64,000 nucleotides of DNA from assembly GCA_035943695.1 (NCBI GenBank), contig DASZBW010000022.1:4102-68101 (forward strand). The letters are read 5' to 3'. Each line of letters opens with the position of its first letter. The first letter of the stretch is position 1. Position numbers and translations under genes: made by a program. The stretch is from Acidobacteriaceae bacterium. Its GTDB lineage: Bacteria; Acidobacteriota; Terriglobia; Terriglobales; Acidobacteriaceae. This document shows, in pieces, positions 10,964 to 46,570 of this stretch. Below the pieces are notes generated by a model, which worked only from the letters and a program-made list of their open reading frames with translations, had not been told where the DNA came from and ran no database searches.

Positions 10964-10983
10964 GTTTGCTCGCTGAAATGTAT

Positions 10984-17406: not shown

Positions 17407-17484
17407 TGATTGCTCCTTCTATCGTTCGAATCTTTTCGTCTCACGTCAAAAATTTTATGCGGCGCCTTCGTCGCGCCCAAATCC

Positions 17485-17964
17485 CTAAGCCACAATCGTG
17501 ATCAAACCACCACCCACAGCCGCCTCATCTCCCTGCCGTCCTTCACTCTTCTCAATCAGGTCGCTGATGCGAATGTTACTCAGCAGGTCCTTGATGCTGT
17601 CATTCACCTTGCGCAGAGGTTCTTTGATGGTGCAATGTCCTGCCAGGTCGCAGGCTCCGTGAATCGTAATGCAGCTCGTAATAAACAGCGGCCCATCAAT
17701 CGCCCGAATCACCTCAAACGCCGAAATCTCCGCCGCCGGTCGTGCCAGCGCATATCCACCATTCGTCCCTGCGTGCGACACCAGCAGCCCGGCACGCGCC
17801 AGCGTCTGCAGAATCTTCGCCAGCAGCGGCGGAGGAATGTGATACGCCTGCGCAATATCTTTCGCGCTCTGCGACGCCAGAGCCGCATCCGGACCTGCTG
17901 ACTGCTCAGCTAGGTACTTGAGCGCCATCAAACCATAGTCGGCTTTTTTGGTCAGACGCAGCAT
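17485..17964 (-). CDS. Rrf2-family Fe-S cluster regulator (IscR-like)
   Basis: MLRLTKKADYGL start, G..GGY.LAR and C-x6-C-x5-C; first gene of the isc operon. Confidence 0.88.
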   Translation of the reverse strand: MLRLTKKADYGLMALKYLAEQSAGPDAALASQSAKDIAQAYHIPPPLLAKILQTLARAGLLVSHAGTNGGYALARPAAEISAFEVIRAIDGPLFITSCITIHGACDLAGHCTIKEPLRKVNDSIKDLLSNIRISDLIEKSEGRQGDEAAVGGGLITIVA

Positions 17965-18003
17965 TGAACTCTCGATAAGACACGGACGGCGATTCCAACC
18001 ACG

Positions 18004-18028
18004 TAATCCGACCGTATTGGTCCTACAT
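18004..18028. promoter_or_regulatory. Candidate Rrf2/IscR operator
   Basis: TAATCCGACCGTATTGGTCCTACAT contains the palindromic core GACC-N5-GGTC, 40 bp upstream of the regulator ATG; resembles type-1 IscR sites. Confidence 0.45.
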
Positions 18029-18213
18029 AAGTGTACGGCGGCCAGAGCCCAGTGGCAAGCCCGCGAGGGCCGGGAAGAAAGATACTCGCATATGCCTGAC
18101 ACTTTCCATGCAGCAACTCCCCGTCCCAGCGAAGAACCGCGGAAGAACTTTTCTCAATTTCGCGATTGACAAGCCGACGGAGCGAAGGCAAACTTTCCCA
18201 AAGCTCCTCCCTT

Positions 18214-22742: not shown

Positions 22743-23933
22743 TTGACCGCACTGCAATCCGCGCCCGTACACCAGGTCTCTGGAGAAAGCCGTCACTACC
22801 CAGAACTAGATGGAGTGCGCGGACTGGCAATTCTTGGGGTTCTTCTGGCACATGCTGCGAATTTTCTCGCGGTGGTGCCCGCGACTTCAGCGGGACATGT
22901 TCTGCTAACAATCTTCATGCCGGGTTGGGGAGGAGTTGACCTTTTCTTTACACTCTCTGGTTTTCTAATCACCGGAATACTACTGCGCACCCGAACTCGG
23001 TCGCATTATTTCTCATCCTTCTACATGAGGCGCGTTCTTCGCATCTTTCCTATCTATTATTTGTTCCTCATAGGAAGTGTTATATTTGCGCATTTTTCAC
23101 CGATGATGGCCCTGCGGATCCCTTCTAACCTGGAAACGCGCATCTCCTATTTTGTCTACCTGCAAAACTGGCCAATCTTCTGGCAGGGCTGGATGGGGCT
23201 CTCGACCTTTTGGGGTGCGTATTGGAGCCTTGCAGTCGAAGAGCAATTTTATATGGTTTGGCCGACCATCCTACGCTTCGTCAAACCCCGAATGGTGCTG
23301 CTCTTATGCATAGCAGCATTTCTATTGGGGTGGCCCGAGAGGCTCTATATGTTTCACCATGTCGGCCTAGCGTTGGGGGTCATGCAGTGGCCTTTTTCGC
23401 GACTGGATGGTCTGTTTGTCGGCGCAATCATAGCACTCTACAAAGAACTATACGGTCGTGCAATTCCCATTCGCTGGGCCACAATTAGTTTCCTGAGTGG
23501 AGCTGCCATATTCTTGCAAATCGCGGCAGCTCATTCGGTAGAGCTCGGAAATGGAAATGGCATCCACGTTTGGACATCTGGCGTGACTGCGTTTGCCTTG
23601 ATGTCAGGAGGCTTGATCGCTGCATCACAACATCGTATCGGCTGGTTACACCGCATTCTTACCGTTCGGCCCCTCGTTATCGCAGGTCGCTTAAGTTATG
23701 GGATGTACATTTACCATTTGACGATTTACCAGCTTATCGTATCGTTTCGGAGGCGCTTTATCATTCCTCAGGGGTTAGCCAATACAAATATTCTGGTGTG
23801 TTTGGCATGGATTGCATTTGCGATACTTGTTGTTACTGGCGTGGCCGAACTTAGCTTCCGCTTTGTTGAAGCTCCATTCCTGCGGCTCAAACGTTTCTTT
23901 CCATCGCCCGCCGCACCCGCCGTGCAAAACTAA
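22743..23933 (+). CDS. Acyltransferase family 3 (OafA-like)
   Basis: ELDGVRGLAI, GVDLFFTLSGFLIT, RRVLRIFP, WSLAVEEQFY and SYGMYIYH motifs. Confidence 0.92.
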   Translation: MTALQSAPVHQVSGESRHYPELDGVRGLAILGVLLAHAANFLAVVPATSAGHVLLTIFMPGWGGVDLFFTLSGFLITGILLRTRTRSHYFSSFYMRRVLRIFPIYYLFLIGSVIFAHFSPMMALRIPSNLETRISYFVYLQNWPIFWQGWMGLSTFWGAYWSLAVEEQFYMVWPTILRFVKPRMVLLLCIAAFLLGWPERLYMFHHVGLALGVMQWPFSRLDGLFVGAIIALYKELYGRAIPIRWATISFLSGAAIFLQIAAAHSVELGNGNGIHVWTSGVTAFALMSGGLIAASQHRIGWLHRILTVRPLVIAGRLSYGMYIYHLTIYQLIVSFRRRFIIPQGLANTNILVCLAWIAFAILVVTGVAELSFRFVEAPFLRLKRFFPSPAAPAVQN

Positions 23934-24111: not shown

Positions 24112-25275
24112 ATGCATGAACACAAGACAGACCCTCAAAATTGGATCAAGCCCTACTATCGCTCATTCAATGGGCTTCGAGGACTGGCTGTAACCCTTGT
24201 TTTCTTTTGCCACTATGGCGGGTCTTTAGACAAGTTTACGTCCCAGGTGGGCTGGGTGGGTGTCGATCTGTTCTTCGTATTATCCGGTTTTTTAATCACC
24301 GGAATTCTTTTCGATTCGCTTGATAGTCCGCATTACTTTCGGGATTTCTACGTGCGGCGCGCATTGCGTATCTTCCCCATCTTCTATGGATTTTTTGGCG
24401 TTCTACTAATCGCCGCGCTCATTCTGCCTATTCACTTTCATCGGAGCATGCTCTCATTTGTCTTCTATGTCGGAAATCTCGTTACACCTTTGAGCAACCT
24501 GGACACGAATAACCCAACTTCAATCTGGATTTTCCGTCACGGCCGCCTATCAGAAATAGCCAATATCGGCACTCTATGGAGCCTTTGTGTAGAAGAGCAG
24601 TTCTACCTCATCTGGCCTGCAATAGTGTGGTGGGTCAGAGACCGCAGCCGCTTGATGAAGATCTGCATCCTTGTCTCCATCGCAACACTCGGCTGCCGCA
24701 TTTTATTAATGTGGTTACTCCCTGGAAAAGCGATATGGCATTACCAGCTCTATTGCAGCACCTATACGCGCTGCGATACGCTGCTTCTGGGCGCATGGCT
24801 CGCGCTGTACCTGCGTGGCGCCGTACTGTCGCTCGATCAACTTCGGCGGTATTCCAACACGCTTATGCTGTCTTCGCTTGCGGGCGTCATTGTGGGAAGA
24901 TCAATCTGGCGCTACGGAAATGCGTTGAACAATAGATTTATTCTTACTGGCGGCCTGACTCTGATTGCTCTCGCGGCAATGGGTTTAGTCCTGCGCGTCT
25001 TGGATGACACCAGCCGAATTTCACGCGTGTTGCGATGGCCCCCAATCGCTGGCCTCGGTGCAATAAGCTACGGCGTTTACTTTTTCCACTCCATCCCGTC
25101 GCCGATCTTGCACAGCTTTTCCGATACGCATCCAAGTCTAAGAAATATCATTCCTCCAGTTTGGTTTGCGTTGACCGTATCTATTGCATGGCTCAGCTTC
25201 CGCTTTTTTGAAACACCCTTCCTGCGATTAAAGAGGGTGCTTGCGCCACATAGGGCATCCATCATTGAGCGGTAG
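24112..25275 (+). CDS. Acyltransferase family 3 (OafA-like)
   Basis: FNGLRGLAV, GVDLFFVLSGFLIT, RRALRIFP, WSLCVEEQFY and SYGVYFFH motifs. Confidence 0.92.
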   Translation: MHEHKTDPQNWIKPYYRSFNGLRGLAVTLVFFCHYGGSLDKFTSQVGWVGVDLFFVLSGFLITGILFDSLDSPHYFRDFYVRRALRIFPIFYGFFGVLLIAALILPIHFHRSMLSFVFYVGNLVTPLSNLDTNNPTSIWIFRHGRLSEIANIGTLWSLCVEEQFYLIWPAIVWWVRDRSRLMKICILVSIATLGCRILLMWLLPGKAIWHYQLYCSTYTRCDTLLLGAWLALYLRGAVLSLDQLRRYSNTLMLSSLAGVIVGRSIWRYGNALNNRFILTGGLTLIALAAMGLVLRVLDDTSRISRVLRWPPIAGLGAISYGVYFFHSIPSPILHSFSDTHPSLRNIIPPVWFALTVSIAWLSFRFFETPFLRLKRVLAPHRASIIER

Positions 25276-25280
25276 TGCTA

Positions 25281-27797
25281 TCAGATCTTCTGCACCCGCT
25301 GCACATCCCGCACACTCTGCACTCGCCGCAGCTTATCCACCAGCCGGTTCAAGTGCCGCACATCCACCGTCTCCACCACAAAGTCGATCACCGCACCACC
25401 ATCCGCCGTAGCATTCGAAGCCGATGAGCGGATGTTCGTCCCATCATCCGAAATAATTGCCGTAAACTCCTTCAGCAACCCCGCGCGGTCGTCGCACAGA
25501 ATCGTAAGCTTCACCGGATAGGTCTGCGCCTTCGGCTTCCCTGCCGAACCCGCATCTCCGGGAATGGGTGCCCACTCAACCTGGATGCGCCGGTCAGACT
25601 CATACAACAAATTCTGCACATTAGGACAACTTCTTGCATGTACCGCGACGCCCTTACCCCGCGTCACATAACCGATAATCTCTTCCCCACGAATCGGATT
25701 ACAACAGCGCGCCCGATACACCAGCAGATCGTCCTGCCCCTCCACCTGCAGCGAGTCCGACCCCTTCCCGAAGAAGACCCGCTTCACCGCATCCGACATC
25801 TGATCCAGCGTATTGCCCACCACGCCCGGCTCACTCGCCGGCTCCGCAGCCGCCGTCGAACCCGGCTCCAGCCTATTCAGCACCTGCCGCGCCGAAAACT
25901 TCCCAAACCCAATCCCAGCCAGCAACTCCGCATGAGTCGTAACGCCATACTCCTGCGCCACCTTGTCGAAGTCCGCCTCGCTATGCTTCGAGAGCGCCAT
26001 CTTGAACTTCCGCGCCTCGCGGTCCAGCAGCTTCTGCCCAATCTCAATCGCGCGCTCACGCTGATGCTCATTGATCCAGTGCTTGATCTTGTTCCGCGCC
26101 CGCGAGCTCTTCGTAAAGCTAAGCCAGTCCCGGCTCGGCGCATGCCCCGTCTGCGTATTGATCTCAACAATGTCGCCATTCCGCAGCTTCGTCCGCAGCG
26201 GCACGATGCGCCCATTCACCTTCGCACCAATCGTAGTGTTGCCTACCTCCGTATGGATCGCATACGCAAAGTCGATCGGGCTCGCATCCTTCGGCAGCAC
26301 CACCACCTTGCCCTTCGGCGTAAAGGTGTAGACCTCATCCGGATACATGTCCATCTTCAGCGTGGACATAAACTCGTTCGGGTCCGACATCTCCCTCTGC
26401 CACTCCATCAGCTGCCGCACCCACGCCAGCCGAGCCTCATCCTTCGCGCTTACCGTATCACCAGCCTTATACTTCCAGTGCGCGGCGATCCCCTCCTCCG
26501 CCACGCGATGCATCTCCTCGGTCCGTATCTGCACCTCAAACTGGTGCCCACCCGGCGCAATCACAGTAGTGTGCAGCGACTGGTAAAGATTAGGCCGCGG
26601 CATCGCAATAAAGTCCTTGATACGCCCCGGCACCGGCCGCCAGATCGAGTGCAGCAGCCCCAGCACCGCATAGCAATCCTGCACACTCTGGCAGATAACC
26701 CGCAGCGCCAGCAGGTCATAAACCTGGTCCACCGGAATCTTCTGGTCGGAAAGCTTCTGTTGAATCGAATAAAGCCGCTTGATCCGCCACTCCACCCGCC
26801 CCGCCAGCTTGTGCTCTGCGAGCTTCGCCTCCAGGTCCTTCACTACACCGGCAAGAAACACCTCGCCCTCATGCCGCAGCGCATCCACCTCGTTCGAAAG
26901 CTGCTCATACACAAACGGATCGGTATACCGAAACGCCAGGTCCTCCAGCTCTCCACGCAGCTTACCCATGCCCAGCCGGTGCGCCAGCGGCGCAAAAATA
27001 TCCAGCGTCTCCTGCGCGATCTTCTGCTGCTTCTCCGGCTTCAGGTGTTCGAGCGTTCGCATATTGTGCAGCCGGTCCGCCAGCTTGATAATCACCACGC
27101 GAACGTCCGTCACCATCGCCAGCAGCATCTTGCGAATGTTCTCTGCCTGGTGGTCTTCGCGGTTCGCAAACTTGATCTTGTCCAGCTTCGTCACGCCCTC
27201 GACGATGTGCGCCACCTGCTCGCCGAACAGCTTTTCAATCTGCTCTGTCGTCACCTCGGTGTCTTCCACCGCATCATGCAGCAACCCCGCCGCAATCGCA
27301 GTCGAATCCATCTTCAGCTCCGCCAGCACCAGCCCCACCTCCAGCGGATGGATCGCATACGGCTCGCCCGAAGCGCGCTTCTGCCCTTCATGCTGTTCCA
27401 GGCAAAACGCCCATGCCTTGCGAATGATTTCGAGATCGTCGCCCGGCCGATTCTGATGCGCCTCATGCAGCAGCCGCGCAAACTTCGCGTCGATCTCGCT
27501 CACTTCAGCCGAGCTCACGCCAACCATATGTTCCGCCGAGCTATCTTCCACCGCAATCTCAACCGGCTCCGCTGCAACCTCAAGCGCAGTAACACCCTCC
27601 GCCGCCGGAATCTCTTCAGTCACCGCGGCAGAGCCCATCGGCACACCAGGACGCAGCGATTCAACCGGCTCAGCAGGCAGCGGAGCGAATTCCATCTCCT
27701 GCTCACTAGCCGTCGGATGCAGCTCGGAATCCATGCCCTCGACACGTGAGGGTGCAGCTTCGCCCCGTCTTCCGCGAGCCGCTGGAATGATTGCCAT
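25281..27797 (-). CDS. rel: Bifunctional (p)ppGpp synthetase/hydrolase Rel (start may be 27734)
   Basis: RASGEPYAIHP, LLHDAVED (HD), KLADRLHNMR, YQSLHT and EVQIRT motifs; TGS and ACT domains. Confidence 0.96.
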   Translation of the reverse strand: MAIIPAARGRRGEAAPSRVEGMDSELHPTASEQEMEFAPLPAEPVESLRPGVPMGSAAVTEEIPAAEGVTALEVAAEPVEIAVEDSSAEHMVGVSSAEVSEIDAKFARLLHEAHQNRPGDDLEIIRKAWAFCLEQHEGQKRASGEPYAIHPLEVGLVLAELKMDSTAIAAGLLHDAVEDTEVTTEQIEKLFGEQVAHIVEGVTKLDKIKFANREDHQAENIRKMLLAMVTDVRVVIIKLADRLHNMRTLEHLKPEKQQKIAQETLDIFAPLAHRLGMGKLRGELEDLAFRYTDPFVYEQLSNEVDALRHEGEVFLAGVVKDLEAKLAEHKLAGRVEWRIKRLYSIQQKLSDQKIPVDQVYDLLALRVICQSVQDCYAVLGLLHSIWRPVPGRIKDFIAMPRPNLYQSLHTTVIAPGGHQFEVQIRTEEMHRVAEEGIAAHWKYKAGDTVSAKDEARLAWVRQLMEWQREMSDPNEFMSTLKMDMYPDEVYTFTPKGKVVVLPKDASPIDFAYAIHTEVGNTTIGAKVNGRIVPLRTKLRNGDIVEINTQTGHAPSRDWLSFTKSSRARNKIKHWINEHQRERAIEIGQKLLDREARKFKMALSKHSEADFDKVAQEYGVTTHAELLAGIGFGKFSARQVLNRLEPGSTAAAEPASEPGVVGNTLDQMSDAVKRVFFGKGSDSLQVEGQDDLLVYRARCCNPIRGEEIIGYVTRGKGVAVHARSCPNVQNLLYESDRRIQVEWAPIPGDAGSAGKPKAQTYPVKLTILCDDRAGLLKEFTAIISDDGTNIRSSASNATADGGAVIDFVVETVDVRHLNRLVDKLRRVQSVRDVQRVQKI

Positions 27798-28008
27798 ATC
27801 TCATTATAGAAGGCACCTCTTAACGCTGTTAGCAAAACATCAAAAGCCTGCCATCCCACCCGCCCGAACCGGAATATCCCGAGAAATTCCGTCCGCGACC
27901 CCGCGAGCAATCGAAACATCTGCGCGACGAAAGTTTGCGCGCAGAATGGGCATTGATCGCTTCGCCACCCCAAGGCTCAAAACTAGCGCTACGTGTTTGA
28001 ATGTACGA

Positions 28009-29217
28009 ATGACCGAAGTGGAACGAGTTGAGGCACAACCCCCGGCGGCGCGATTTGAGAGCGTAGACCTTCTGCGTGGCCTTTCGATTCTCGCTGTGGT
28101 GCTGCTTCATTCCTGGCTACGCTTCTTTCTGAACGACGTACACGTGGGCACACGGTTGCCGAGATGGCTGGCGCAGCTCCTCCTGCGTAACGGCGGCAAT
28201 GGCGTCACTATATTCTTCGCCATCTCCGGCTTTCTGATCACGCTCACCAGCCTCCGGCGATTTGGGAGCCTGAGCCGGATGCAGCTTGGGCGTTTTTACA
28301 GAATCCGCTTTGCACGAATCGCTCCCCTGCTGCTGCTGCTGCTCACCGTCTTGTGCCTGCTGCACTGGGCCGCCCTCTATTCCCATGCCTTCGCGCCATG
28401 GCATGTGAAGAAGAACATTGGACTGCCGCGAGCATTGTTCTCCGCTCTAACGTTTCATCTCAACTGGCTCGAAGCGAAGGCCGGGTACCTCCCCGCGAAT
28501 TGGGACGTCCTGTGGTCCTTGAGCGTGGAGGAGATGTTTTATCTCTTCTTCCCGCTCGCCTGTGTGGCGTTTGTCGGACGCAGGTCGCCTCTACGAAAGG
28601 TTGGATGGCCGCTCCTGTTCCTCCTGGCAGGAGTCCTGCTTGTACTCGGACCCTGGGCACGATCGGTTTGGATCACCACCGATATCGGACGCGAGAAAAG
28701 CTATCTCGGCGGGATGAACGCAATAGCAATGGGATGCCTGGCGGCTCTGCTTTGCGATCGACTCGCGCATACGAGACAGCTCGCACGCCGATGGACTTTC
28801 GTCGCTGAGGCCGCCGGATGGGTGCTCATCGCGTGGATGGCCACCTGGCCGCGCTGGGCATGGCTGCATGGCGCAAGCCAGTTTCTAGGACGCACCGACC
28901 TCGATGACACACTGCTGCCACTCGCAGTCTGCCTTGTAATGGTTGCGACAGTACTGCGCGGTTCCAGCGGCGGAGGATGGCTCACCGCACCCCTTCGATG
29001 GTTCGGACGCCATAGCTACGAGGTGTACCTCACCCATGAATTTCTCGTCCTGCTCGGCGTAATAGCCTTCTTGCGCTGGCATGGAACCCATCCAGCGTTC
29101 TGGGTAGCCGGCATCACACTTTCAACGGCACCATTAGGATGGGCGGTGGCACACTACTTCTCGGAGCCGATGAATCGACGACTACGCGGACCAAGTCCCA
29201 CGAAGCCACGTTCCTGA
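28009..29217 (+). CDS. Acyltransferase family 3 (OafA-like)
   Basis: VDLLRGLSI, GVTIFFAISGFLIT, RFARIAP, WSLSVEEMFY and SYEVYLTH motifs. Start reset to the ATG at 28009. Confidence 0.9.
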   Translation: MTEVERVEAQPPAARFESVDLLRGLSILAVVLLHSWLRFFLNDVHVGTRLPRWLAQLLLRNGGNGVTIFFAISGFLITLTSLRRFGSLSRMQLGRFYRIRFARIAPLLLLLLTVLCLLHWAALYSHAFAPWHVKKNIGLPRALFSALTFHLNWLEAKAGYLPANWDVLWSLSVEEMFYLFFPLACVAFVGRRSPLRKVGWPLLFLLAGVLLVLGPWARSVWITTDIGREKSYLGGMNAIAMGCLAALLCDRLAHTRQLARRWTFVAEAAGWVLIAWMATWPRWAWLHGASQFLGRTDLDDTLLPLAVCLVMVATVLRGSSGGGWLTAPLRWFGRHSYEVYLTHEFLVLLGVIAFLRWHGTHPAFWVAGITLSTAPLGWAVAHYFSEPMNRRLRGPSPTKPRS

Positions 29218-30624: not shown

Positions 30625-31605
30625 ATCCGAAGCATCCATTCCAGACGCTGTATAGCCACGGCACTCCTTGCGCTCACACCGGCACTCACCGGCTGTTCCG
30701 CCTTCCGAAGTGTCGCCAAATATCTGGCGGTCCATAAGCATGCCGTGCTCAAGACCCATCCTCCCGACGTAGTCCTCACCAGCTCCATGGACGAACTGCT
30801 CAAGCAGATCGACAACCGCTATACCGCCGTCGACACCATCACGAGTCGCCAAGTCGAAATGGACCTGTGCTGGGGCGGCGGGACGGACGGCATACAGAAC
30901 TGTTCCAACTTCAGCGGTTACATCGTCGTCCAGAAGCCCGAAAAGATTCTCGTCGTCCTCAAGCTCCCCGTCGTAGGCAGCGCAGCCCTCAATATGGCCT
31001 CAGACGGCAGGGCCTTCAAGATGAAGGTCCCACCCTATAACTGCGCCATCGTCGGCTCCGATGAAGTCACCAGCAGCTCCCAGAAGGGCATCTACGCGCT
31101 TCGCCCCAGCGCAATCCTCGACTCCATGCTGATTCGCGGCATCCGGGCCAACCAGGTCGTCTCCATGACCCAGGACAGCCGCACCCTGCCCGACCCCAAA
31201 AACCGCAAGAGCCTCATGCTCGAACCAGACTACGACATCGAATTCCTCTCCCAGCCTGCCGGTCAGATCGCCAGCACCCTCCGCGTGCTCCACACCAGCC
31301 GAGTCAACCTGCTGCCCTACCGACAGGACATCTACAACCCGGAAGGCAAAATCGTCACGACAGCCTTCTACAGCAACTACCAGAAGTTCGGCGACATCAA
31401 CTTCCCCACAAAGATCGAAATTCAACGCCCGCTCGACGAACTCAAACTCACCATCACCCTCAGCAAGACCGTCTTCAACCAGACCCTGCCGGCGGACCAG
31501 TTCGACATCGATATCCCCGCCACCTACAAAACCTACAAAATGGACGACCCATCCATCGCCGCTACAGTCCCGTGCGGCGCGCATGCGACGCAATCGCCGC
31601 ATTGA
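30625..31605 (+). CDS. LolA/LolB-like (DUF4292-type) lipoprotein; start uncertain (ATC 30625 or GTG 30745)
   Basis: The open frame includes a signal peptide and lipobox LTGC upstream of the GTG. Beta-rich body ending FNQTLPADQFDI. Confidence 0.6.
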   Translation: MRSIHSRRCIATALLALTPALTGCSAFRSVAKYLAVHKHAVLKTHPPDVVLTSSMDELLKQIDNRYTAVDTITSRQVEMDLCWGGGTDGIQNCSNFSGYIVVQKPEKILVVLKLPVVGSAALNMASDGRAFKMKVPPYNCAIVGSDEVTSSSQKGIYALRPSAILDSMLIRGIRANQVVSMTQDSRTLPDPKNRKSLMLEPDYDIEFLSQPAGQIASTLRVLHTSRVNLLPYRQDIYNPEGKIVTTAFYSNYQKFGDINFPTKIEIQRPLDELKLTITLSKTVFNQTLPADQFDIDIPATYKTYKMDDPSIAATVPCGAHATQSPH

Positions 31606-32851
31606 TCTCCAGCGCCAACCCCAGCGCCGCCCGCCCATCCTCCACCGTCACCTCTGGCTCCCGCCGCGTCCGCACCGCCTCCAGAAAAGCCTCAATCTCC
31701 AGCCGCAGCGGCTCCCCCGCCTCCACCGCAACCTTCCGCATCTCCATCCCCCCCGAAGGATGTTCACCAACCCTCTGACCATCCGCTGTCGAACTCTTCC
31801 CCACCCCCAAAACTCCGGGTGCCCCATCCTTCGCAGCCTCATCGCGAAGGGTGGAGTCCAACATCTTCGCCGCGATCTTCCCCAAATCCGCTCCCGTCAC
31901 ATCGATCACCAACAAATCCTGCCGCGCAAAGTCCAGCGAAAGATACTGCCGCGGCTGAAAGAACCGCATCTTCCGTACCCGCTCCGTACTCACCCGGCTC
32001 GCAGTAAAGTTCGCCACACAGCCGTTCTCAAACTCCAGCCGCACATTCGCGATATCCACCTTATTCGACAACACCGGAAGCCCTACCGCCCGAACCTCCC
32101 GCACCGGCACACCTACCAGGTTCATCACAATATCCAGGTCATGGATCATCAAATCCAGCACCACATCGACATCCAGCGACCGCGGCGTAAACACGCTCAT
32201 CCGGTGCACCTCAAAGAACATCGGCTTGTTCAGCAGCCCACGCACCGCCCGCACCGCCGGGTTGAACCGCTCCAGATGCCCCACCTGCACCACGCGCCCT
32301 AGCTTCTGCGACAGCGCCACAATCTCATCCGCCTCAGCCAGCGTAGCCGCCAACGGCTTCTCGATCAGCACATCCACACCCGCCGCCATCAACTCCCGCG
32401 CACAAGCCAGATGATGCACCGTAGACACACAAACCGAAGCCGCCGAAATCCCCCTGAGGCCTCCTCTCTGTTTGTCATTCTGAGCGGAGCGAAGAACCCC
32501 CGCATCTCCTCCCACAGAGCCACCAACCCCGGGTGCCCCATCCTTAGCAGCCTCATCGCTAAGGGTGGGATCCACAAAGCCCGCATCACCTACTCCGGGT
32601 GCCCCATTCATGCGCGCATTTTGCGCATGAGTGGGATCGACAAATCCCGCACCCCCACCCTCCCCCATTAGACACTCAGCAACCGAAGCATACCCACGCA
32701 CCCCAAAGTCCGCCTCAGCCCGCCCTCGAGCCCCAGCATCGGGATCAATCACCGCCGCCAGCTCCACCGGATATCCCGCCACCTCCAGCTCGCGATAAAC
32801 CCGCAGATGGTTCCGCCCGAACGCCCCCGCGCCCACCACCACCACCCGCAT
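31562..32851 (-). CDS. Gfo/Idh/MocA oxidoreductase (possibly GnnA-like UDP-GlcNAc 3-dehydrogenase) with repeat-derived inserts
   Basis: MRVVVVGAGAFG, LIEKP, GHLERFNPA and DLMIHDLD motifs. Start reset to the ATG at 32851. Confidence 0.88.
   Translation of the reverse strand: MRVVVVGAGAFGRNHLRVYRELEVAGYPVELAAVIDPDAGARGRAEADFGVRGYASVAECLMGEGGGAGFVDPTHAQNARMNGAPGVGDAGFVDPTLSDEAAKDGAPGVGGSVGGDAGVLRSAQNDKQRGGLRGISAASVCVSTVHHLACARELMAAGVDVLIEKPLAATLAEADEIVALSQKLGRVVQVGHLERFNPAVRAVRGLLNKPMFFEVHRMSVFTPRSLDVDVVLDLMIHDLDIVMNLVGVPVREVRAVGLPVLSNKVDIANVRLEFENGCVANFTASRVSTERVRKMRFFQPRQYLSLDFARQDLLVIDVTGADLGKIAAKMLDSTLRDEAAKDGAPGVLGVGKSSTADGQRVGEHPSGGMEMRKVAVEAGEPLRLEIEAFLEAVRTRREPEVTVEDGRAALGLALEINAAIASHARRTGL
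31817..31855 (+). repeat. Palindromic element family A, inside the Gfo gene
   Basis: GGGTGCCCCAT-CCTTCGC-N9-GCGAAGG-GTGG. Confidence 0.9.
32473..32662 (+). repeat. Composite insert in the Gfo gene: one family B copy (32473-32505) and two family A copies (32531, 32597; 66-bp period)
   Basis: TGTCATTCTGAGCGGAGCGAAGAACCCCCGCAT is identical to 44339-44371; two GGGTGCCCCAT...GTGGGAT hairpins follow. Confidence 0.9.
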
Positions 32852-32883
32852 TACGGACTGTTCGCCATCCCGCAGTCCGCACT

Positions 32884-32933
32884 CCCCGGCGAGCGGTCCC
32901 GGCTCGCCGGGGTGAAGCGAAGCGGTGGAACCT
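32884..32933 (+). repeat. 11-bp-stem hairpin with a family-B-like tail (family D)
   Basis: CCCCGGCGAGC-N7-GCTCGCCGGGG followed by TGAAGCGAAGCGGTGGAACCT. Confidence 0.6.
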
Positions 32934-33000
32934 CTTTCTCCACCGCCCCCCACAGCTTCCTGTTCCTTGTACCTTACTCCCTGCTCCCTGCCCTCCGGCA

Positions 33001-33213
33001 CTACTTCACCGAACCCTCAACCGCCGACCTGCAACGCCCATACAGCTCCAGCAGCTCCGTAACCTGATCCTCTGCCTTCGCCGAAGCCGCCGCCCCAAAA
33101 CCCACGCCGCCGCTAGCCGCCTTCGCGCCCACATGCGCCTGCGCCGCCACAAACTTTAGCAGATCCAAAGCAATATCCTCAGTCCGCCGAGCTCCATTGT
33201 TCACTTCACTCAT
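33001..33213 (-). CDS. Small hypothetical protein
   Basis: 70 aa, helical ends with a Gly/Ala linker; ATG start; same strand as the downstream Gfo gene. Confidence 0.6.
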   Translation of the reverse strand: MSEVNNGARRTEDIALDLLKFVAAQAHVGAKAASGGVGFGAAASAKAEDQVTELLELYGRCRSAVEGSVK

Positions 33214-36557: not shown

Positions 36558-36801
36558 GCTTCTAAGTGGTCAAAGCTTCAGAGCTTCCACGTAAGCCAGG
36601 GCTTCAGCCGTGACCTCCGCAGTAGCCCCCTTCAACGCAACATCTAAGCTCTCGCTTCTAGGTAAGCCAAGGCTTCAGCCGTGACCTGTACAGTAGCCCC
36701 TCCAACGCAACATCCAAGCTCTCGCTTCTAGGTAAGCCAAGGCTTCAGCCTTGGCCCTCTCCAGCCTACATACAACGGGGGCTTTAGCCCCTGGGGCATG
36801 C
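36558..36801 (+). repeat. About 70-bp tandem array ending in a complete family C element (36728-36801)
   Basis: Units start GTAAGCCA at 36591, 36662 and 36732, each followed by GGCTTCAGCC; the last continues to GGGGCTTTAGCCCCTGGGG. Confidence 0.85.
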
Positions 36802-38334: not shown

Positions 38335-38455
38335 GGTGCCCCATTCATGACAACATCATCGTCATGAGTGGGGTCCGCCGCGTCCGGGTGATAGCCGTCC
38401 GACAGCCGGATACCTGGGTGCCCCATTCATGACAGCACTATCGTCATGAGTGGGG
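38335..38455 (+). repeat. Two family A hairpins upstream of dnaB (38335-38373, 38416-38455)
   Basis: GGTGCCCCAT-TCATGAC-N9-GTCATGA-GTGGGG twice. Confidence 0.9.
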
Positions 38456-38569
38456 GTCTCCGTCGCCACGGTCATAACCTTCCGCCAGCTGATTACTCTG
38501 CACCACCCCCATTCAATGGCATAATGACTCAAACCCCAGGCGCACCAGCCCAACGGAGTCCACCCAACC

Positions 38570-38869
38570 ATGCCCTCCAGCAAGCCACTCGAAATCCCCG
38601 CCGCCGCCACCCGCGACCCCGGCTCCTTCGAAGTCCTCCGCGTATGGATCGCCGAGCAGGGCCAGCACGTCTCCATCCGCTCCGGCGCCTGGGAAGACCC
38701 CTTCGCCTGGGGCATCGTCCTCGCCGATCTCGCCCGCCACATCGCCCTCGCCCAGCAACTCCACACCCCCACCACCGACATCGAAGCCTTCGTCGAGCGC
38801 CTCCTCGAAGGCTTCCACGCCGAAATCGAAAACCCCACCGACGAACCCGAAGGCGAAGTCACCCAATAG
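38570..38869 (+). CDS. DUF5076-like small protein
   Basis: EVLRVWIA...WEDPFAWGIVLADLARHIA motif; strong codon bias. Confidence 0.7.
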   Translation: MPSSKPLEIPAAATRDPGSFEVLRVWIAEQGQHVSIRSGAWEDPFAWGIVLADLARHIALAQQLHTPTTDIEAFVERLLEGFHAEIENPTDEPEGEVTQ

Positions 38870-38922
38870 CCCTCCTCGAAATCTCGCCGCGCTATACTGA
38901 CCCGTCCGCAAAAGAGGTCATC

Positions 38923-41900
38923 GTGCAGCGTTCTGAGCAGTCGTTCCTCCTGTCTTCCATTCGACGTTCTATCCCATTCCACTCCACTAAAATTTCCCTT
39001 GCCCTCCTCCTCGCTGCTTCTTATCCGCACAGCCCTCACGCTCTCGCCCAGAGCGCCGCTCCAGTCCAAGCCGCAACGTCCTCTCAGGCGCAGACCGAAA
39101 TCGATCCCACCCAGATTCGCAAGGTTGGCGGCAGCGTTTCCCCACCCGTTCTAACCTTCCATGTCGCACCCAGGTTCAGCCCACAAGCCCGCGCAGCCAG
39201 ATTTTCCGGCACTGTCCTGGTCGGAGCCATCATCGACACTTCTGGCACCCCGAGGAACGTGCACATAGTCCAAGGCCTCGGCATGGGGCTCGACGAATCC
39301 GCTGTAGACGCAGTCACCCAATTCCGCTTCAAACCCGCGATGGAGAGTGGCAAGCCCGTGCCCGTCCAGATCAACATCCGAGTCAACTTCCAGATCGATA
39401 AAAGTCAGAATGACGATGCATCGTCGAAGCCCGAAGCAATAGCCCCCGCGGCGAAATCATCTGACCTCTCGCCGGCACCCGCCCCCAACGCGCCACCAGC
39501 CGCAGCCCCGCTCACAGCGACCTCAACCGACCCCTACGCCGCCGAACCCATCGTCATCCTCAACATCGAGCATCTCTTCAGCATGGCCGCCGACGGCACC
39601 GGTTGGATGGAACATACATTCGACGCACGCCTTCAGTCCGACACCGCCGTCAAGCAGTACGGCGTCCTCACCGTCCCTTACGCCAGCGCCTCCCAACAAG
39701 TTGAACTCCAATATGTCCGCGCACGTCATCCCGACGGCACCGTCACCGAAACCCAGATCTCTGAAGCCATGGACATGCCCAGCCCCGTCACCCGCGAGGC
39801 TCCGTTCTACAGCGATCAAAAAGAACTGCAGCTGCCCATTCGCAACCTGCGCGTAGGCGACACGCTCGAGTTGAAATACCGCATCGTGCGCACCCGCGCC
39901 GAAGTCCCCGGCCAGTTCTGGGCCCAGGAAATCTTCTCCGACGCCGCAGTCGTCCTCTCCCAAACCATCGAGCTGCGCGTCCCCGCAGGCCTGGCCGTCA
40001 ACGTGTGGAGTCCCACCGTCAAGCCGGTCGAATCCACCTCAAGCCCCACCGCAGAAGCCCCCGCTCAACACATCTATCGCTGGACTCATTCTCAGCTTCA
40101 ACCCACCGCAGGCAAAGCAGCCGAAGCAGCAGCAGCCGCAAAAAAGAAAGTCCTTTGGACTCCGGAGCAGGAGATTGACGCTGCGCAAGGCAAGCTCCCC
40201 ACCATCGCCTGGAGTACCTTCAAATCCTGGCAGCAGGTCGGCGCATGGTACCGCTCGCTCGAAGCAGACCGCATCGTCCCCGACACTCTCAGAGCAAAGG
40301 CCGCCGAGTTGACCGCCGGCAAGACCACCGACGAAGCCAAAGCGCACGCACTCTACGATTACGTCGCTACCAACATTCGCTACATCGGCGTGGGATTCGG
40401 CATCGGCCGCTTCCAGCCCCACACCGCATCGGAGATCCTCGCCAACCAATACGGCGACTGCAAGGATAAGCACACACTCTTCGCCGCGCTCCTTGCAGCC
40501 GAAAATATCCACGCCGATGCGGTCCTCATCGGTGCAGGCATTCGTTTCAATCCCGACGTCCCCTCACCCTCGGCCTTCAACCACCTCATCACCCATCTCA
40601 CCTTGAACGGCAAGCCCGTATGGCTCGACACCACCGCCGAGGTCGCCCCCTGGGGAATGCTCGTCTCCACCACCCGCGACAAGCAATCACTCGTCATTCC
40701 CTCCGCACCCTCCGCAGAAGCTACCATCGTCCGCACCCCACTCGAACCCGCCATCCCCGACGCCCTGAGCCTGGAGGCTTCTGGATCGCTGGACACAAAT
40801 GGCATCTCGTCCTCTCACCTGGTCCTGACATTCCGAGGCGATGGCGAGATTGCGGCCCGCTCCGTCTCCCGCAGGATCCAGCCCGCGCAATACGACAAGC
40901 TCGCCGAAATTCTTGCCAAAACAATGGGCTTCTCCGGATCCGTAACCAACGCTGAGATCACACGCCCCACAGACACCACCCAGCCTTTCAAACTCAGCTT
41001 CGACTACAAACGCGAGAAGGCAGGCGACTGGGCTCGCCTCCGCACCCTTCCCGAAGTGATTCCCGTCAGCTTGCCGCGCGTCACAGATTTCGATCCCCCC
41101 GTCCGCGCGATCCAGCTGGGACTCCCCCGCACGCAGGACTCCACCTCCTCCATGAAGCTGCCTGCTGGCTGGAACGCCATCATGCCCCCTTCCTTCCACA
41201 CAGAATGCCGGTACGCGATCTACGACATGACCTACCGCCTCGAAGGCAATACCATCTATGCCACGCGCCACGTCGCGGTCCTGGCGAAAGAAGTCCCGGT
41301 CAGCCAATGGAAGGCGTACAAATCATGGATTGACGCAGTGAATCCAGCCAACCAGGCGGCGATTCAACTCGTCCCTGCCAGGAATATGCCGTCTGGCTCG
41401 ACGACTTCCTCGACCTCACCCTCTTCTGCCGCACCCGGGCAGACCCGCGCTCTCGGCGATATCCACACGCCTTCCCCGACCGAACCAAGGACGAAACAGA
41501 TTCAGGATGCGCTCGACGATCCCCGTCCCGGCCCCAAGAACAGCGTCGCCTACGCGCTGGCCATCAACAACAGCCATCTCGCAGACGCGCAACTGCTCGT
41601 CGACCAGGCTCTCTCCCTGCAAGAGCAGCAGGCAGCCGACGCGATATCCGGCGGTGATACCGGCAAAATCAGCCAGCAGATGCGCGCCCTCGCCAGCTTC
41701 TGGGATACGGCCGAGTTCCTCTACTACCGCACCCACAATTTCGCCAGGGCCGAACGCTACGGCCGCGCAGCATGGGAGCTGAATCCCAGCCAGGTTATGG
41801 CCATCCATCTCGCCTTCATCTATCAGGCCGAACATAAGCCCCAGGAAGCAATCGCCCTCTTTCGTATGGCGCTCAGCGACAGTCCAACCCCCGCCGCACT

Positions 41901-42288
41901 CGACGCAATCCAGAGTCACCTCGCCACTCTCGGTTCTCCAGACGCCGAACCTCTCCCCATTGACATCGTCACACCCTTGCCCGATGCCAGGCTCCCCACC
42001 CTCGCGCCGGACGACGAGCCCCTGGTCGACATCGTACTCAGCCATGCCTTGCCGCCCGCTCTTACCTGGCTCAAAGCGAGTGCTGCGCAAAAGCAGGCAC
42101 TGAGCCTCCCCATTCAATCCGCACTGGCATCCTGGCTTCCCGATGAAGGCCCAGAGCTGGTGCTTCGTCACGCAGAGGTCTCCTGCACCACCGGCAATAC
42201 ACCCGCCTGCGCCCTGCATTCCATCGTCCCGCACCCACACCCGCCCACAGCAAACGGGCAAACCCGGTCAATCGCGCCAAAGCAGTAG
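38923..42288 (+). CDS. Secreted TonB-C-terminal + DUF3857 + transglutaminase-like + TPR multidomain protein
   Basis: GTG start after AAGAGG. TonB_C (G.V.V.AIIDTSGTPRNV..LDESAVDAV.QFRFKPA); YGDCKDKHTL / FNHLI / WLDTT Cys-His-Asp triad; TPR helices near the C-terminus. Confidence 0.8.
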   Translation: MQRSEQSFLLSSIRRSIPFHSTKISLALLLAASYPHSPHALAQSAAPVQAATSSQAQTEIDPTQIRKVGGSVSPPVLTFHVAPRFSPQARAARFSGTVLVGAIIDTSGTPRNVHIVQGLGMGLDESAVDAVTQFRFKPAMESGKPVPVQINIRVNFQIDKSQNDDASSKPEAIAPAAKSSDLSPAPAPNAPPAAAPLTATSTDPYAAEPIVILNIEHLFSMAADGTGWMEHTFDARLQSDTAVKQYGVLTVPYASASQQVELQYVRARHPDGTVTETQISEAMDMPSPVTREAPFYSDQKELQLPIRNLRVGDTLELKYRIVRTRAEVPGQFWAQEIFSDAAVVLSQTIELRVPAGLAVNVWSPTVKPVESTSSPTAEAPAQHIYRWTHSQLQPTAGKAAEAAAAAKKKVLWTPEQEIDAAQGKLPTIAWSTFKSWQQVGAWYRSLEADRIVPDTLRAKAAELTAGKTTDEAKAHALYDYVATNIRYIGVGFGIGRFQPHTASEILANQYGDCKDKHTLFAALLAAENIHADAVLIGAGIRFNPDVPSPSAFNHLITHLTLNGKPVWLDTTAEVAPWGMLVSTTRDKQSLVIPSAPSAEATIVRTPLEPAIPDALSLEASGSLDTNGISSSHLVLTFRGDGEIAARSVSRRIQPAQYDKLAEILAKTMGFSGSVTNAEITRPTDTTQPFKLSFDYKREKAGDWARLRTLPEVIPVSLPRVTDFDPPVRAIQLGLPRTQDSTSSMKLPAGWNAIMPPSFHTECRYAIYDMTYRLEGNTIYATRHVAVLAKEVPVSQWKAYKSWIDAVNPANQAAIQLVPARNMPSGSTTSSTSPSSAAPGQTRALGDIHTPSPTEPRTKQIQDALDDPRPGPKNSVAYALAINNSHLADAQLLVDQALSLQEQQAADAISGGDTGKISQQMRALASFWDTAEFLYYRTHNFARAERYGRAAWELNPSQVMAIHLAFIYQAEHKPQEAIALFRMALSDSPTPAALDAIQSHLATLGSPDAEPLPIDIVTPLPDARLPTLAPDDEPLVDIVLSHALPPALTWLKASAAQKQALSLPIQSALASWLPDEGPELVLRHAEVSCTTGNTPACALHSIVPHPHPPTANGQTRSIAPKQ

Positions 42289-43959: not shown

Positions 43960-43999
43960 GGTGCCCCATTCATGACAGTCTCACCGTCATGAATGGGGC
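43960..43999 (+). repeat. Family A hairpin between the convergent DUF72 and mnmG genes
   Basis: GCCCCATTCATGAC-N9-GTCATGAATGGGGC (14-bp perfect stem). Confidence 0.9.
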
Positions 44000-44021
44000 C
44001 TACCTCCGCAGCCAGCCCCCG

Positions 44022-46535
44022 TTACGCGGTCTTCCGCCGCCCCTGAATCTCAATAAAACAATTCACCAGGCTCACCGCCGCCGGCGTCACTCCCTGAATC
44101 CGCCCAGCCTGCCCCAGCGTTCTCGGCCGCACCCGCCCCAGCGTCTCCACCATCTCCCTGCTCAACCCCGAACAAGCCGCATAATCGAACCCAACCGGAA
44201 TCACCCTTTCCTCATCCCGCTTCAGCTTCGCCATCGTCTTCTTCTGCTGCTCCAGATACCCCGCATACTTGATCTCCGTCTCCACCGTCTTCATCTCATT
44301 CCGAACCCACGCCGGAAGTCTCCCACTGGCGACGGACGTGTCATTCTGAGCGGAGCGAAGAACCCCCGCATTTTCTCCGGCCACCCAAACACCCCCTCCG
44401 CTCATCCAAACTCCCAATTCCTCCACCCCACCCACCACCTCATGCAAGACCGGCCACAACCCCTCCACCATAACCTCCGGCCTCTTCAAAACCTGCGCCC
44501 AGGTCTGCCCCTTCATCTCCGAAACATCCCCGCGCAAAGCCCCCCCCAACATCTCCACCAAAGCCTCAGCCCGCTCCCCCACCCGCATCTCCAACACCCG
44601 CGCAAACGCCTCCGCCCGAGCCATCTTCGCCTCATGCGCCGCCCACGCAACATCATCAATCAGCCCCAGCCGCCGCCCATACACCGTCAGCCGACGATCC
44701 GCATTATCAATCCTCAAATGCAGCCGAAACTCCGCCCGCGAAGTAAACATCCGGTAAGGCTCATTCGTCCCCTTCGAGATCAAATCATCAATCAAAATCC
44801 CCGTATACCCCTCCGTCCGATCCAGCGTAAACCCTGCAAACTCCCCCCACCCCAAAACTCCGGGTGCCCCATCCATCGCAGCCTCACCGCGATGGGTGGG
44901 ATGTAAGACCTCCGCTTCCCCCACCAAAGCCTTTGCCCATAAGGCAGCATTAATTCCCGCCATCAACCCCTGGCAAGCCGCCTCTTCATACCCACTCGTC
45001 CCATTGATCTGCCCCGCCAGAAACAGCCCGGCAAACTTCTTCACTCCCAGCGTCCTATCCAGCTCCGTCGGGTCAATAGCGTCATACTCGATCGCATACC
45101 CCGGCCGCAACATCTCTGCATTCTCCAGCCCAGGTATCGACCGCACCATCGCCACCTGCACCTCCATCGGCAGGCTGGTCGACATGCCATTCACATAAAC
45201 CTCATGCGTATTCAGCCCCTCCGGCTCCAGAAAAAACTGGTGCTGCGTCTTCTCCGGAAACCGCACGATCTTGTCCTCAATCGAAGGACAATACCGCGGC
45301 CCCGTCGCATGAATCTGCCCCGTATACATCGGCGACCGGTGCGCATTCTCCCGGATCAGCCGCATCGTCTCCGGCGACGTCGTAGCAATATAGCAACTCA
45401 CCTGCCGCAACTCCGGCACCCAGCTCCCACCCCCGCATCCCGCCGTAGAAGAGAGAACGGGCCAGGCCGAGCGTAGCGGAGAAGGTATCGCCTCTAGGTA
45501 CCCCAAGGCTTCAGCCTTGGGTCTCTCTGCCACGGCCGAAGAACAAGAGGCTTTAGCCTCTGGGGTATGCCCTCCGTCCGCCGCGCCGACAGCCTCATTC
45601 TGAGCGAAGCCGCGTGCCCCATCCATCGCAGTCTCATCGCGATGGGTGGGATGCAAATCTCCCCGTGCCCAATTCCTGCCAGTCCTATCGTCATGAGTGG
45701 GCGCCAACCCCGTTCCCCGCTTCAACCCCGCCCGAAAACTAAACGGAGTAGGATCCACATCCCCAGGCTGCTCCTCAAACCTCGTCCAATCAATCGTCCG
45801 CCCATCCAGCCGCGGCGGAGTCCCTGTCTTCAACCTGCACTCCCGCAGCCCCAGCCGCTTCAGCGCCTCCCCCAGCAACACGCTCGCCGGCTCCCCACTC
45901 CGCCCCGCCGCGTACTGCTGCTCCCCACAATGAATCAACCCATTCAAAAACGTCCCCGTAGTCACCACCGTAGCCCGCGCATAAACTACCCGCCCATCCC
46001 GCAGCCGCACGCCCACCACCCGCCGCTGCCTGTGCTCCTGGGCAAAGCTCCCACCCACAACATTGTCATCCTCAGCAGCGCCAGTAAAAACATTGTCATC
46101 CTGAGCGGAGCGCAGCGCAGTCGAAGGACCTGCGGTTCCTTCCTCCACCACCACATCCACCACCTCAGCTTGCTTAATAAACAAGCCCTTCTGCCCCTCC
46201 AGCACCTCCCGCATCTTCACCCGGTAAAGCGCCTTATCGCACTGCGCCCTCGGCGACCAAACAGCCGGCCCCCGCGAAGTATTCAGCAGCCGAAACTGGA
46301 TCCCACAAGCATCCGCCACTTCACCCATCACTCCACCCAGCGCATCCACCTCCCGCACCAGGTGTCCCTTAGCGATCCCGCCAATCGCCGGATTACAACT
46401 CATCTGCGCAATCAAATCCAGATTCAGCGTAAACAACGCCGTCCGCAGCCCCATCCGCGCCGCCGCCATAGCCGCCTCGCACCCCGCATGACCCGCCCCC
46501 ACCACCACCACATCAAACTCTTCCGTAAATCCCAT
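44022..46535 (-). CDS. mnmG: tRNA uridine-34 carboxymethylaminomethyl modification enzyme MnmG (GidA) with four repeat-derived in-frame inserts
   Basis: [58 protein letters not shown] and [12 protein letters not shown] all intact; 837 aa. Confidence 0.96.
44339..44371 (+). repeat. Family B element inside mnmG
   Basis: 33/33 identical to 32473-32505; read as [10 protein letters not shown] in both genes. Confidence 0.9.
44862..44902 (+). repeat. Family A element inside mnmG
   Basis: GGGTGCCCCAT-CCATCGC-N9-GCGATGG-GTGGGAT. Confidence 0.9.
45420..45715 (+). repeat. Composite insert in mnmG: family C (45494-45570), B fragment (45596-45610), family A (45614-45652) and degenerate A (45665-45701)
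   Basis: Direct similarity to the intergenic copies at 36728, 46635 and 38416. Boundaries approximate. Confidence 0.85.
46059..46137 (+). repeat. Family B element with an abortive upstream copy, inside mnmG
   Basis: AACATTGTCATCCTCAGC, then AACATTGTCATCCTGAGCGGAGCGCAGCGCAGTCGAAGGACCTGCGGTT; the tail is shared with 48163-48212. Confidence 0.85.
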
Positions 46536-46570
46536 CCCCCAATTCTACGTTTTTCCACCCATCACCCCCA

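Follow-up and report, generated by a model that had tools for sequence, protein, structure and literature searches.

The question raised by the locus described here is how a conserved enzyme comes to carry long, repeat-derived segments within its reading frame, and what those segments are. The locus lies in a 64-kb stretch of DNA, referred to below as the window, from an uncultured, Granulicella-like soil bacterium of the Acidobacteriaceae. The gene at issue encodes a GnnA-like oxidoreductase of the Gfo/Idh/MocA family, and two loops of the encoded protein are occupied by copies of two small repeat families, A and B. An earlier note on this DNA had proposed that the inserts also occur in mnmG, an unrelated gene, and that the dehydrogenase tolerates them. 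Based on the current evidence, it is quite likely that the repeats are selfish palindromic elements, similar in behavior to repetitive extragenic palindromes (REPs) and Rickettsia palindromic elements (RPEs), that selection has filtered to permissive loops and a stop-free frame. The gene and the repeats within it are the following.

31562-32851, minus strand: GnnA-like Gfo/Idh/MocA oxidoreductase gene, recognized from the list of open reading frames (ORFs), the translation, Pfam, PDB matches and the ratio of nonsynonymous to synonymous substitution (dN/dS).
32450-32662, minus strand: loop-1 insert region, about amino acids (aa) 64-134, between a helix (aa 57-63) and a Rossmann strand (aa 137-140).
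32595-32640, minus strand: hairpin of family A copy 1a (unit 32591-32640), stem TCATGCGC, read as DPTHAQNARMNGAPG; RNA fold -21.1 kcal/mol, z -3.7.
32529-32574, minus strand: hairpin of family A copy 1b (unit 32525-32574), stem CCTTAGC, read as DPTLSDEAAKDGAPG; RNA fold -18.4 kcal/mol, z -2.4.
32473-32512, minus strand: family B copy, in frame with a 12-aa reading, not a hairpin.
31769-31861, minus strand: loop-2 insert region, about aa 331-361, between a strand (aa 312-317) and the invariant HPS motif (aa 364).
31796-31870, minus strand: family A copy 2 in loop 2 (hairpin 31815-31860, unit 31811-31860), stem CCTTCGC, 19-aa reading; fold -19.5 kcal/mol, z -2.7.

All four repeats, three of family A and one of family B, are in frame and confined to the two loops. 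In alignments, loop 1 has 69 aa in the window protein compared with 0-11 aa in repeat-free orthologues. This agrees with the earlier estimate of about 65 extra residues in the Rossmann domain and rules against the possibility, also raised there, that orthologues lacking the repeats have loops of the same length. The further family A copy that had been placed near the C-terminus was found at 31811-31860, and the alignments contain empty loop-2 alleles in the orthologous loci L081, L082 and L084. The 3' extension of this copy is shared with a copy in mnmG (44841-44915; family D2, 83% identity over 75 nt). In the Rossmann fold, the position of loop 1 is the N-terminal end of a strand, on the side facing away from the cofactor. 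An AlphaFold2 model built from 120 orthologues replaced a 22-sequence model that was dropped as too poor (predicted local distance difference test, pLDDT, 54). Its overall pLDDT was 76.7 and its predicted template modeling score 0.75, with a core above 90 and aa 1-60 at 96-98, and pLDDT fell below 50 at aa 73-122 in loop 1 and aa 341-359 in loop 2. In the predicted structure, the inserts are disordered. The junction peptides expected from a translated insert include, for example, MNGAPGVGDAGFVDPTLSDEAAK.

The earlier note had also described a 66-bp tandem of family A in loop 1. The spacing stands, since copies 1a and 1b are 66 nt apart, but the tandem duplication does not. The two copies are just 62% identical, and their stems differ yet both are fully paired. 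A recent tandem duplication is therefore ruled out, and 1a and 1b are better described as two subfamily members lying side by side.

Family A possesses a recognizable architecture, in which a 5' foot, (..CAT)CCCA, is followed by a C/A mismatch, a stem of 7-8 bp, a 7-nt loop, the complementary arm and a 3' foot, TGGGGCACCCGG. The unit is about 45-55 nt, with a hairpin of roughly 45 nt, and elements including an extension reach about 45-75 nt. The feet are conserved (5' ..CAT-CCCAC and 3' ATGGGGCACCCGG), and the stem sequence varies among subfamilies, at least five of which were seen, with complementarity kept. The family B unit reads TGTCATTCTGAGCGGAGCGAAGAACCCCCGC on the plus strand and has no significant structure (fold z -0.4 and -0.06 on the two strands). 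Neither core is a chance recurrence: 7 matches to the A core were found against 0.18 expected from shuffled sequences, and 3 to the B core against 0 expected. Of the pair cells in an ungapped alignment of 24 family A copies, drawn from the window and from related loci, 98.4% are standard, and pairing drops to 32-46% in controls with slid partner columns. The informative part is the two-sided changes. Seven of the 13 pairs have changed on both sides (52 cells), the inner stem is nearly without one-sided changes, and a C-G to U-A double change is present in half of the copies (12 of 24). The folding energy z-scores of the A hairpins range from -2.4 to -4.0, and the antisense strand folds as well as the sense strand or better. 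G-U pairs had been considered as a sign of a function as sense-strand RNA, an idea that was withdrawn because the antisense hairpins are equally or more stable.

Further hairpin subfamilies occur in related loci (L081 8285-8316; L011 site 1; site 1 of L002 and L006), where CCCAC and GGGGCACC feet enclose short or unrelated stems. One subfamily stem, CCCACATCTC..GAGATGTGGGG, is read as PTSQNRDVGHP or SHVSESRHGAPG, and another, CCAAGC..GCTTGG, as PPKRSLDGAPG. This pattern points to a superfamily of A-like hairpins that may be defined by the feet.

The gene that holds these inserts is likely a functional GnnA-like, NAD-dependent sugar-nucleotide 3-dehydrogenase, an activity predicted from motifs, profiles and fold. 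It encodes 429 aa from MRVVVVGAGAFG, with the ATG at 32851, and its stop-to-stop frame is open as far as a GTG at 33001, which is the start of the public 479-aa gene call. The Pfam Rossmann N-terminal domain PF01408 matches with 75.9 bits against a cut-off of 24, although the insert splits the match in two, and two C-terminal domain models also exceed their cut-offs (PF22725, 36.5 bits; PF02894, 30.8 bits). The GxGxxG motif that marks Gfo/Idh/MocA Rossmann domains is present as GAGAFG at aa 7-12, and the catalytic motifs of the family are E164-K165-P166 and D233..H237 (D-x3-H). Both EKP and DLMIHDLD are unchanged across 120 orthologue sequences. The best PDB match of the orthologue profile is 7bvj/7bvk (E 1e-48; 7bvj 1.2e-48), the titles of which name the UDP-N-acetylglucosamine 3-dehydrogenase GnnA of A. 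ferrooxidans. The same structures lead the Foldseek comparison (E 1.5e-24, template modeling score 0.84-0.88 on the target), six orders of magnitude ahead of the next fold family (2.4e-18). The label GnnA-like, which the earlier note had offered conditionally, is justified in the sense of closest relative, by sequence and by modeled fold.

The window protein and GnnA (PDB 7bvj, 7bvk) agree in their EKP and DxxxH motifs and in a Gfo/Idh/MocA architecture of two domains. In contrast, GnnA has 321 aa and shares about 26% identity with the window protein over the whole structure alignment, its loop 1 has at most 1-2 residues and its loop 2 about 12, compared with 69 and about 45, and the partner gene gnnB is not adjacent to the window dehydrogenase. 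Among curated NCBIfam equivalogs, the top model was NF040723, an archaeal UDP-GlcNAc 3-dehydrogenase, which scored 164 bits against a cut-off of 450, and no bacterial GnnA model matched. The ORFs scanned with Pfam across the window include no GnnB-type DegT aminotransferase and no lpx genes. The sole aminotransferase among them is a class-V, IscS-like protein, and a GnnB partner could sit elsewhere in the genome. Because the only equivalog is archaeal and under its cut-off and the scanned ORFs include no DegT or lpx gene, neither membership in GnnA nor the role in lipid A that the earlier note had considered is established.

That the inserts are tolerated, as had been proposed, agrees with several observations. 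The core of the gene is under purifying selection, with dN/dS of 0.13-0.29 against relatives over 329 shared codons, the ORFs of insert-bearing orthologues are unbroken, and EKP and D-x3-H are invariant. The gene order mnmG ... dnaB - alr - 70-aa ORF - gene - LolA-like - YceG ... relA is kept in relatives; in the window, the neighbors of the dehydrogenase are alr, the 70-aa ORF, a LolA-like or DUF4292 protein and YceG/MltG. A pseudogene, the outcome that would have told against tolerance, is contradicted by the intact frame and the same dN/dS values.

The optional N-terminal extension of the dehydrogenase (32852-33001) reads PEGREQGVRYKEQEA, and the corresponding reading in the orthologue P0003 is PKDREQGIGNREQED. 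A similar GTGNREQGT motif lies within an unrelated beta-propeller protein of L112 (compare L084, 8-70). This suggests that the extension may belong to a further family of short repeats, one that goes with a CTCCCTG heptamer.

The repeats are also abundant in the source metagenome. Word depth there is 430-1600 at the repeats and about 14 in the flanking unique sequence, a 30- to 100-fold difference, and independent contigs from that run end within repeat copies. These two properties identify the repeats as high-copy elements in the community. The contig breaks also allow a trivial explanation, namely that the gene is an artefact of short-read metagenome assembly, with chimeric joins through repeats, or a pseudogene. 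Source-run contigs do break at 31825-31846 and 32476-32502, where they overlap by just 21-27 nt or so. Assemblies of other samples (L081, L083, L084), however, repeat the order and frame of loop 1, which is A, then a second A in L083, then B, and megabase contigs of other species carry A at both loops, as in L001 with its 3.36-Mb contig. Given this agreement among independent assemblies and the megabase contigs, together with an intact ORF and dN/dS below 0.3, such an artefact is hardly credible.

How the inserts were acquired is best seen in their distribution among orthologues. A species-level set comprised 77 orthologous loci, including 12 species with repeat-derived sequence, and a tree set comprised 124 tips, namely the window protein, 119 database orthologues and 4 outgroups. 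Among the 77 loci, length variation is limited to the two loops and the termini, with a baseline of 0-11 aa in loop 1 and about 0-12 aa in loop 2. Among the 124 tips, loop 1 is filled in 51 (A in 26, B in 18 and both in 7) and loop 2 in 29. Filled and empty tips are intermixed on the neighbor-joining tree. For loop 1, Fitch parsimony demands 18 or more changes; for loop 2, it demands 21 or more, compared with 26 for shuffled tips.

All filled alleles have their repeats at the same two loops, nearly all in the same orientation and frame, and L005 and L010 share a stem subfamily and the same downstream residues. This is what would be expected if each loop had received a single ancient insertion, followed by vertical descent with hairpin-preserving evolution, either compensatory or by intra-strand conversion, and by occasional deletion. 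Deletion has evidently occurred. The empty alleles P0106 and P0100 stand among close filled relatives, lack the ancestral motif and have scars that differ from one another, which marks them as imprecise, clearly secondary deletions, and P0106 is 98.4% identical in its core to the filled P0085. Empty alleles in many other branches, however, keep the ancestral motif ARAELKR(V/I)D, which is missing from filled alleles and could not be recreated by deletion, and filled lineages interleave with them. Moreover, the loop-1 junction shifts by lineage (0, 2, 5 or 6 aa after ECM), and second elements differ even among the closest relatives, the second A copies of the window and L083 lying at different offsets with different stems. 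At loop 2, the states are distributed nearly at random on the tree. Retention of the motif in the empties, the varied junctions and the differing second elements argue for repeated independent gains, and a single ancient insertion per loop appears improbable. It is likely instead, from these sequence comparisons, that gain and loss of inserts recur as proteins diverge by 1-2%. Some lineages read the same repeat DNA in another frame (HEWGTQ, VGHP), which indicates that the conserved entity is the DNA element and not the peptide.

No common target motif was found at the insertion sites in comparisons of filled and empty alleles. Homology-guided targeting was considered as well, since the native loop-2 sequence CATCC(C/T)(A/T)C, which encodes HP(S/T), resembles the 5' foot. 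It is not supported, since nothing comparable exists at loop 1.

The dehydrogenase is one of several sites at which the families occur. In total, the window contains nine A copies and five B copies in 64 kb, all on one strand. Those outside the dehydrogenase are listed with their principal host.

44022-46535, minus strand: mnmG, 837 aa, with the same repeat families inside.
44863-44908, 45613-45658 and 45664-45709, minus strand: family A copies in mnmG, the last one decayed.
44339-44378 and 46094-46133, minus strand: family B copies in mnmG.
43960-44005, minus strand: intergenic family A copy directly 3' of the mnmG stop codon, with a perfect 15-bp stem.
38335-38462, minus strand: two intergenic family A copies upstream of dnaB.
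46635-46756, minus strand: two intergenic family B copies upstream of mnmG.

The B copy of the dehydrogenase and its counterpart in mnmG have an identical 24-nt core (mnmG 44340-44363), are 95% identical over 40 nt and share the same 10-aa reading, as the earlier note had observed. The A copies of mnmG likewise share the reading frame of the dehydrogenase (two 14-aa readings). With the same families in both genes and in intergenic DNA, the earlier contention that the phenomenon is not specific to mnmG is confirmed. In a metagenome scan with a 15-mer of the A 3' foot, 120 loci were recovered, 35 of them with true hairpins. At least 3 of these 35 lie in the same frame inside unrelated, Pfam-supported genes; the genic hosts in other metagenomes encode a lactonase-like beta-propeller protein, an M56 peptidase of the BlaR1 type and a sigma-70 region-4 protein. 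Of the other 32, judged without Pfam, most lack a long spanning ORF and look intergenic. Generality was assessed at the DNA level, because library-wide significance is out of reach for insert peptides as short as these. The 66-aa insert peptide had no match in a word-indexed search of 5.8 billion proteins, and an exhaustive phmmer search of 1.84 billion representatives returned just four weak matches, to short ORFs. A comparison of the insert DNA with PLSDB plasmids, INPHARED phages and IMG/VR contigs gave no match.

The load of mnmG itself deserves comment. At 837 aa, it exceeds the typical length of MnmG, and six or more of its segments derive from repeats. The orthologues in L081 and L082 have 761 and 834 aa, so that the insert load varies among relatives. 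A third repeat family, which contains the hairpin CCAAGGCTTCAGCCTTGG and has a 70-nt unit in about 2.8 tandem copies at 36583-36777, lies between dnaB and the next gene, and a related copy is found inside mnmG at 45463-45522.

The elements might instead be kept because they benefit the host, for example through mRNA stabilization, translational pausing between subdomains, or a peptide that acts in protein interaction or as a linker. In keeping with such a role, the stems stay paired across copies, genic ones included, the copy immediately after the mnmG stop codon is placed like a 3' stem-loop, and a single frame that encodes a hydrophilic peptide is used consistently. However, presence and absence differ between orthologues with 98% core identity, one loop may hold from zero to three elements of variable composition, and the peptide is predicted to be disordered and is itself not conserved, as shown by the alternative frames HEWGTQ and VGHP. 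In addition, neither repeat matches any Rfam family at gathering or permissive thresholds. Maintenance for host benefit is thus unlikely.

The strong hairpin in each insert also recalls translational bypass and some splicing elements, and the inserts could in principle never reach the protein, being removed from the mRNA or skipped by the ribosome; the RNA runs searched contain no copy of the gene that would contradict this. Elements that are removed or bypassed would not need an open frame, however, and the insert-bearing orthologues examined all keep one, stop-free across dozens of independent states, which disfavors the idea. No known ribozyme or intron family matches either, and removal or bypass is very unlikely.

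In the common stems of the TCATGAC type, TGA occurs in two of three frames on either strand, sense and antisense, and the only open sense frame is the one observed, PTH..MNGAPG. More generally, the A frame reads PTH..(M/K)(N/D)GAPG, a hydrophilic peptide rich in glycine and proline. Purifying selection acting on a more abundant influx of insertions would spare those placed in frame, in multiples of three and in loops. The elements are also strongly polarized. In the metagenome sample, the strand with CCCAC...GGGGCACC is the locally G-rich strand for 47 of 55 A copies (p 8e-8), and for 32 versus 1 where the absolute skew exceeds 0.05. Family B behaves similarly, with the sense strand on the G-rich strand in 17 of 19 copies. 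All copies are co-oriented in 66 of 72 loci. REPIN-like inverted doublets, or a REPtron layout, were therefore rejected as a model, both orientations occurring in just 6 of the 72 loci and none of these flanking a transposase-sized ORF.

Strand asymmetry is pronounced in the window as a whole. Between 25281 and 59378, the plus strand has a third-position GC skew of -0.43 to -0.80 and a third-position AT skew of +0.07 to +0.77, covering each Pfam-supported gene from relA to purF (about 25-59 kb) whatever its orientation. Genes at 1-13 kb (window 1-13500) have almost no skew (absolute value at most 0.15), and the change is abrupt within one contig. Skew of this size looks far above that usually produced by replication. 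Across the loci L001-L080, each 7 kb, the local median absolute GC skew is 0.23 in insert-carrying species compared with 0.06 in species without inserts, a difference (Mann-Whitney p 8e-5) that is not corrected for phylogeny.

Taken as a mechanism, the selfish-element reading would run as follows. Small dispersed repeats, the REP-like hairpin A and its unstructured companion B, would reach intergenic as well as genic sites across the genome, with a single orientation with respect to the G-rich strand. In essential or useful genes, only those copies would survive that had landed in a permissive loop, with a length divisible by three and a frame free of TGA. In the dehydrogenase, they would have colonized two indel-tolerant surface loops, and the surviving copies would be translated as hydrophilic, disordered loop extensions. 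The inserts are thus probably translated as a floppy extra peptide and would be near-neutral. As for the route of mobilization, we infer it from polarity, and by analogy it could plausibly involve single-stranded DNA at the replication fork. A stronger form of this proposal is possible but on the unlikely side. According to it, A and B would be mobilized single-stranded at the fork, their high flux would strike the same loops in parallel lineages, and they would be a main and ongoing source of change in loop length in the housekeeping proteins of soil Acidobacteriaceae. The lineage would then be one with exceptional strand asymmetry (third-position GC skew of about 0.7) and possibly a non-RAYT mobilizing enzyme (RAYT, REP-associated tyrosine transposase).

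Several points weigh against selfish mobile elements translated within their hosts. The 64-kb window contains no transposase of any kind, and comparisons of filled and empty alleles reveal no target-site duplication. The copies used for covariation were preselected for at least six paired positions, which inflates the paired percentage, and the active strand of A cannot be told, as both strands fold about equally. The neighbor-joining tree has no bootstrap support, and its tips were called filled or empty by regular expressions. The genome-wide share of genic copies rests on small samples. Finally, none of the RNA runs searched holds the gene, and they give no direct sign of insert translation or enzyme activity.

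By sequence, size and tags, family A fits neither the RPEs nor the catalogued REPs. RPEs are palindromic repeats found between genes and in frame inside unrelated housekeeping genes, where they are thought to be tolerated at the protein surface (PMC10969869; PMC3733652). Family A resembles them in behavior only, being likewise intergenic and in frame within unrelated genes. RPEs are about 100-150 bp, each with a conserved peptide, and are found in obligate intracellular alphaproteobacteria. Family A, in contrast, measures about 45-55 nt, combines conserved feet with stems that vary, and does not resemble RPEs in sequence. It is found in free-living soil Acidobacteriaceae, and in the dehydrogenase the same two loops gain and lose it rapidly. 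At about 45-75 nt and in an Acidobacteriaceae host, the element belongs to none of the families RPE-1 to RPE-10.

REPs are imperfect palindromes of 20-40 bp that are high in copy number, form subfamilies with different stems and are mostly extragenic, although intragenic REPs encoding 20-80 aa have been described in uvrA, uvrB and dnaE of O. terrae, Thauera and R. conorii (PMC3733652). Family A shares with them a short dispersed palindrome (13 pairs, 7-nt loop), high copy number and subfamilies. It differs in that the GTAG/CGTC tetranucleotide is missing, its place being taken by feet that are invariant in the 24-copy alignment, CCCA(C) and (A)TGGGGCA, also written CCCAC/GGGGCACC. Its copies are mostly single or direct and not inverted doublets of the REPIN or BIME kind. 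No gene for a RAYT, a Y1 transposase, was found in the 64-kb window. Y1/RAYT systems of the IS200/IS605 type recognize subterminal hairpins and have a strong orientation bias relative to the replication fork, and Acidobacteria have Y1 class 3 genes with atypical flanking structures (PMC6006769). The polarity of A and B resembles that of such single-strand, replication-coupled elements by analogy only, given that the window has no Y1 gene, that a conserved target tetranucleotide did not emerge and that the foot reported for class 3, CnGA, does not fit. MITEs (transposable elements of the miniature inverted-repeat type), including Coxiella QMITE, ERIC and the Anabaena MITEs, are small non-autonomous repeats capable of being translated as part of host ORFs (PMC10969869; PMC5896051). 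MITEs have 70-300 bp, terminal inverted repeats and target-site duplications; family A, in contrast, is a single hairpin of less than 60 nt in which neither feature was seen. No description of families A and B was found in the searchable literature.

Translated palindromic repeats are textbook material for Rickettsia only and sporadic for REPs, and here the same behavior appears in abundant, free-living soil bacteria. The many natural filled and empty alleles of one conserved enzyme, some at 98% identity, amount to a natural experiment on loop tolerance and give a handle on the dynamics of insertion and deletion. The repeats also have practical consequences. They break metagenome assemblies, inflate protein lengths and split domain matches, and in the annotation of Acidobacteria they can be mistaken for pseudogenization or novel domains.

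Other features of the window were noted as well. A 28-nt tandem repeat in three copies lies upstream of mnmG (46565-46647), abutting a family B copy, and a 25-nt repeat in 2.9 copies lies upstream of a TrmA-like gene (48092-48163). Three further ORFs look long compared with the sizes usual for their families: a BamD/YfiO-like protein of 636 aa (4944-6854), a TonB_C-DUF3857-transglutaminase protein of 1280 aa (38446-42288) and ComEC with 936 aa (49597-52407). As none of them contains an A or B copy, other sequence must explain their length. Three acyltransferase_3 genes (22743-23933, 24112-25275 and 27733-29217) have no strand skew and a third-position GC content of 0.53-0.62, compared with 0.7-0.88 in their neighbors. 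Two of the three share repeated segments, and the genes look like recent acquisitions or duplications. At 10984-13520 and 16078-18102, the window also contains two unremarkable gene pairs, an EgtD/EgtB-like pair, consisting of a His-specific methyltransferase and an FGE-sulfatase/DinB_2 protein and suggesting a capacity for ergothioneine synthesis, and an IscR-IscS pair.

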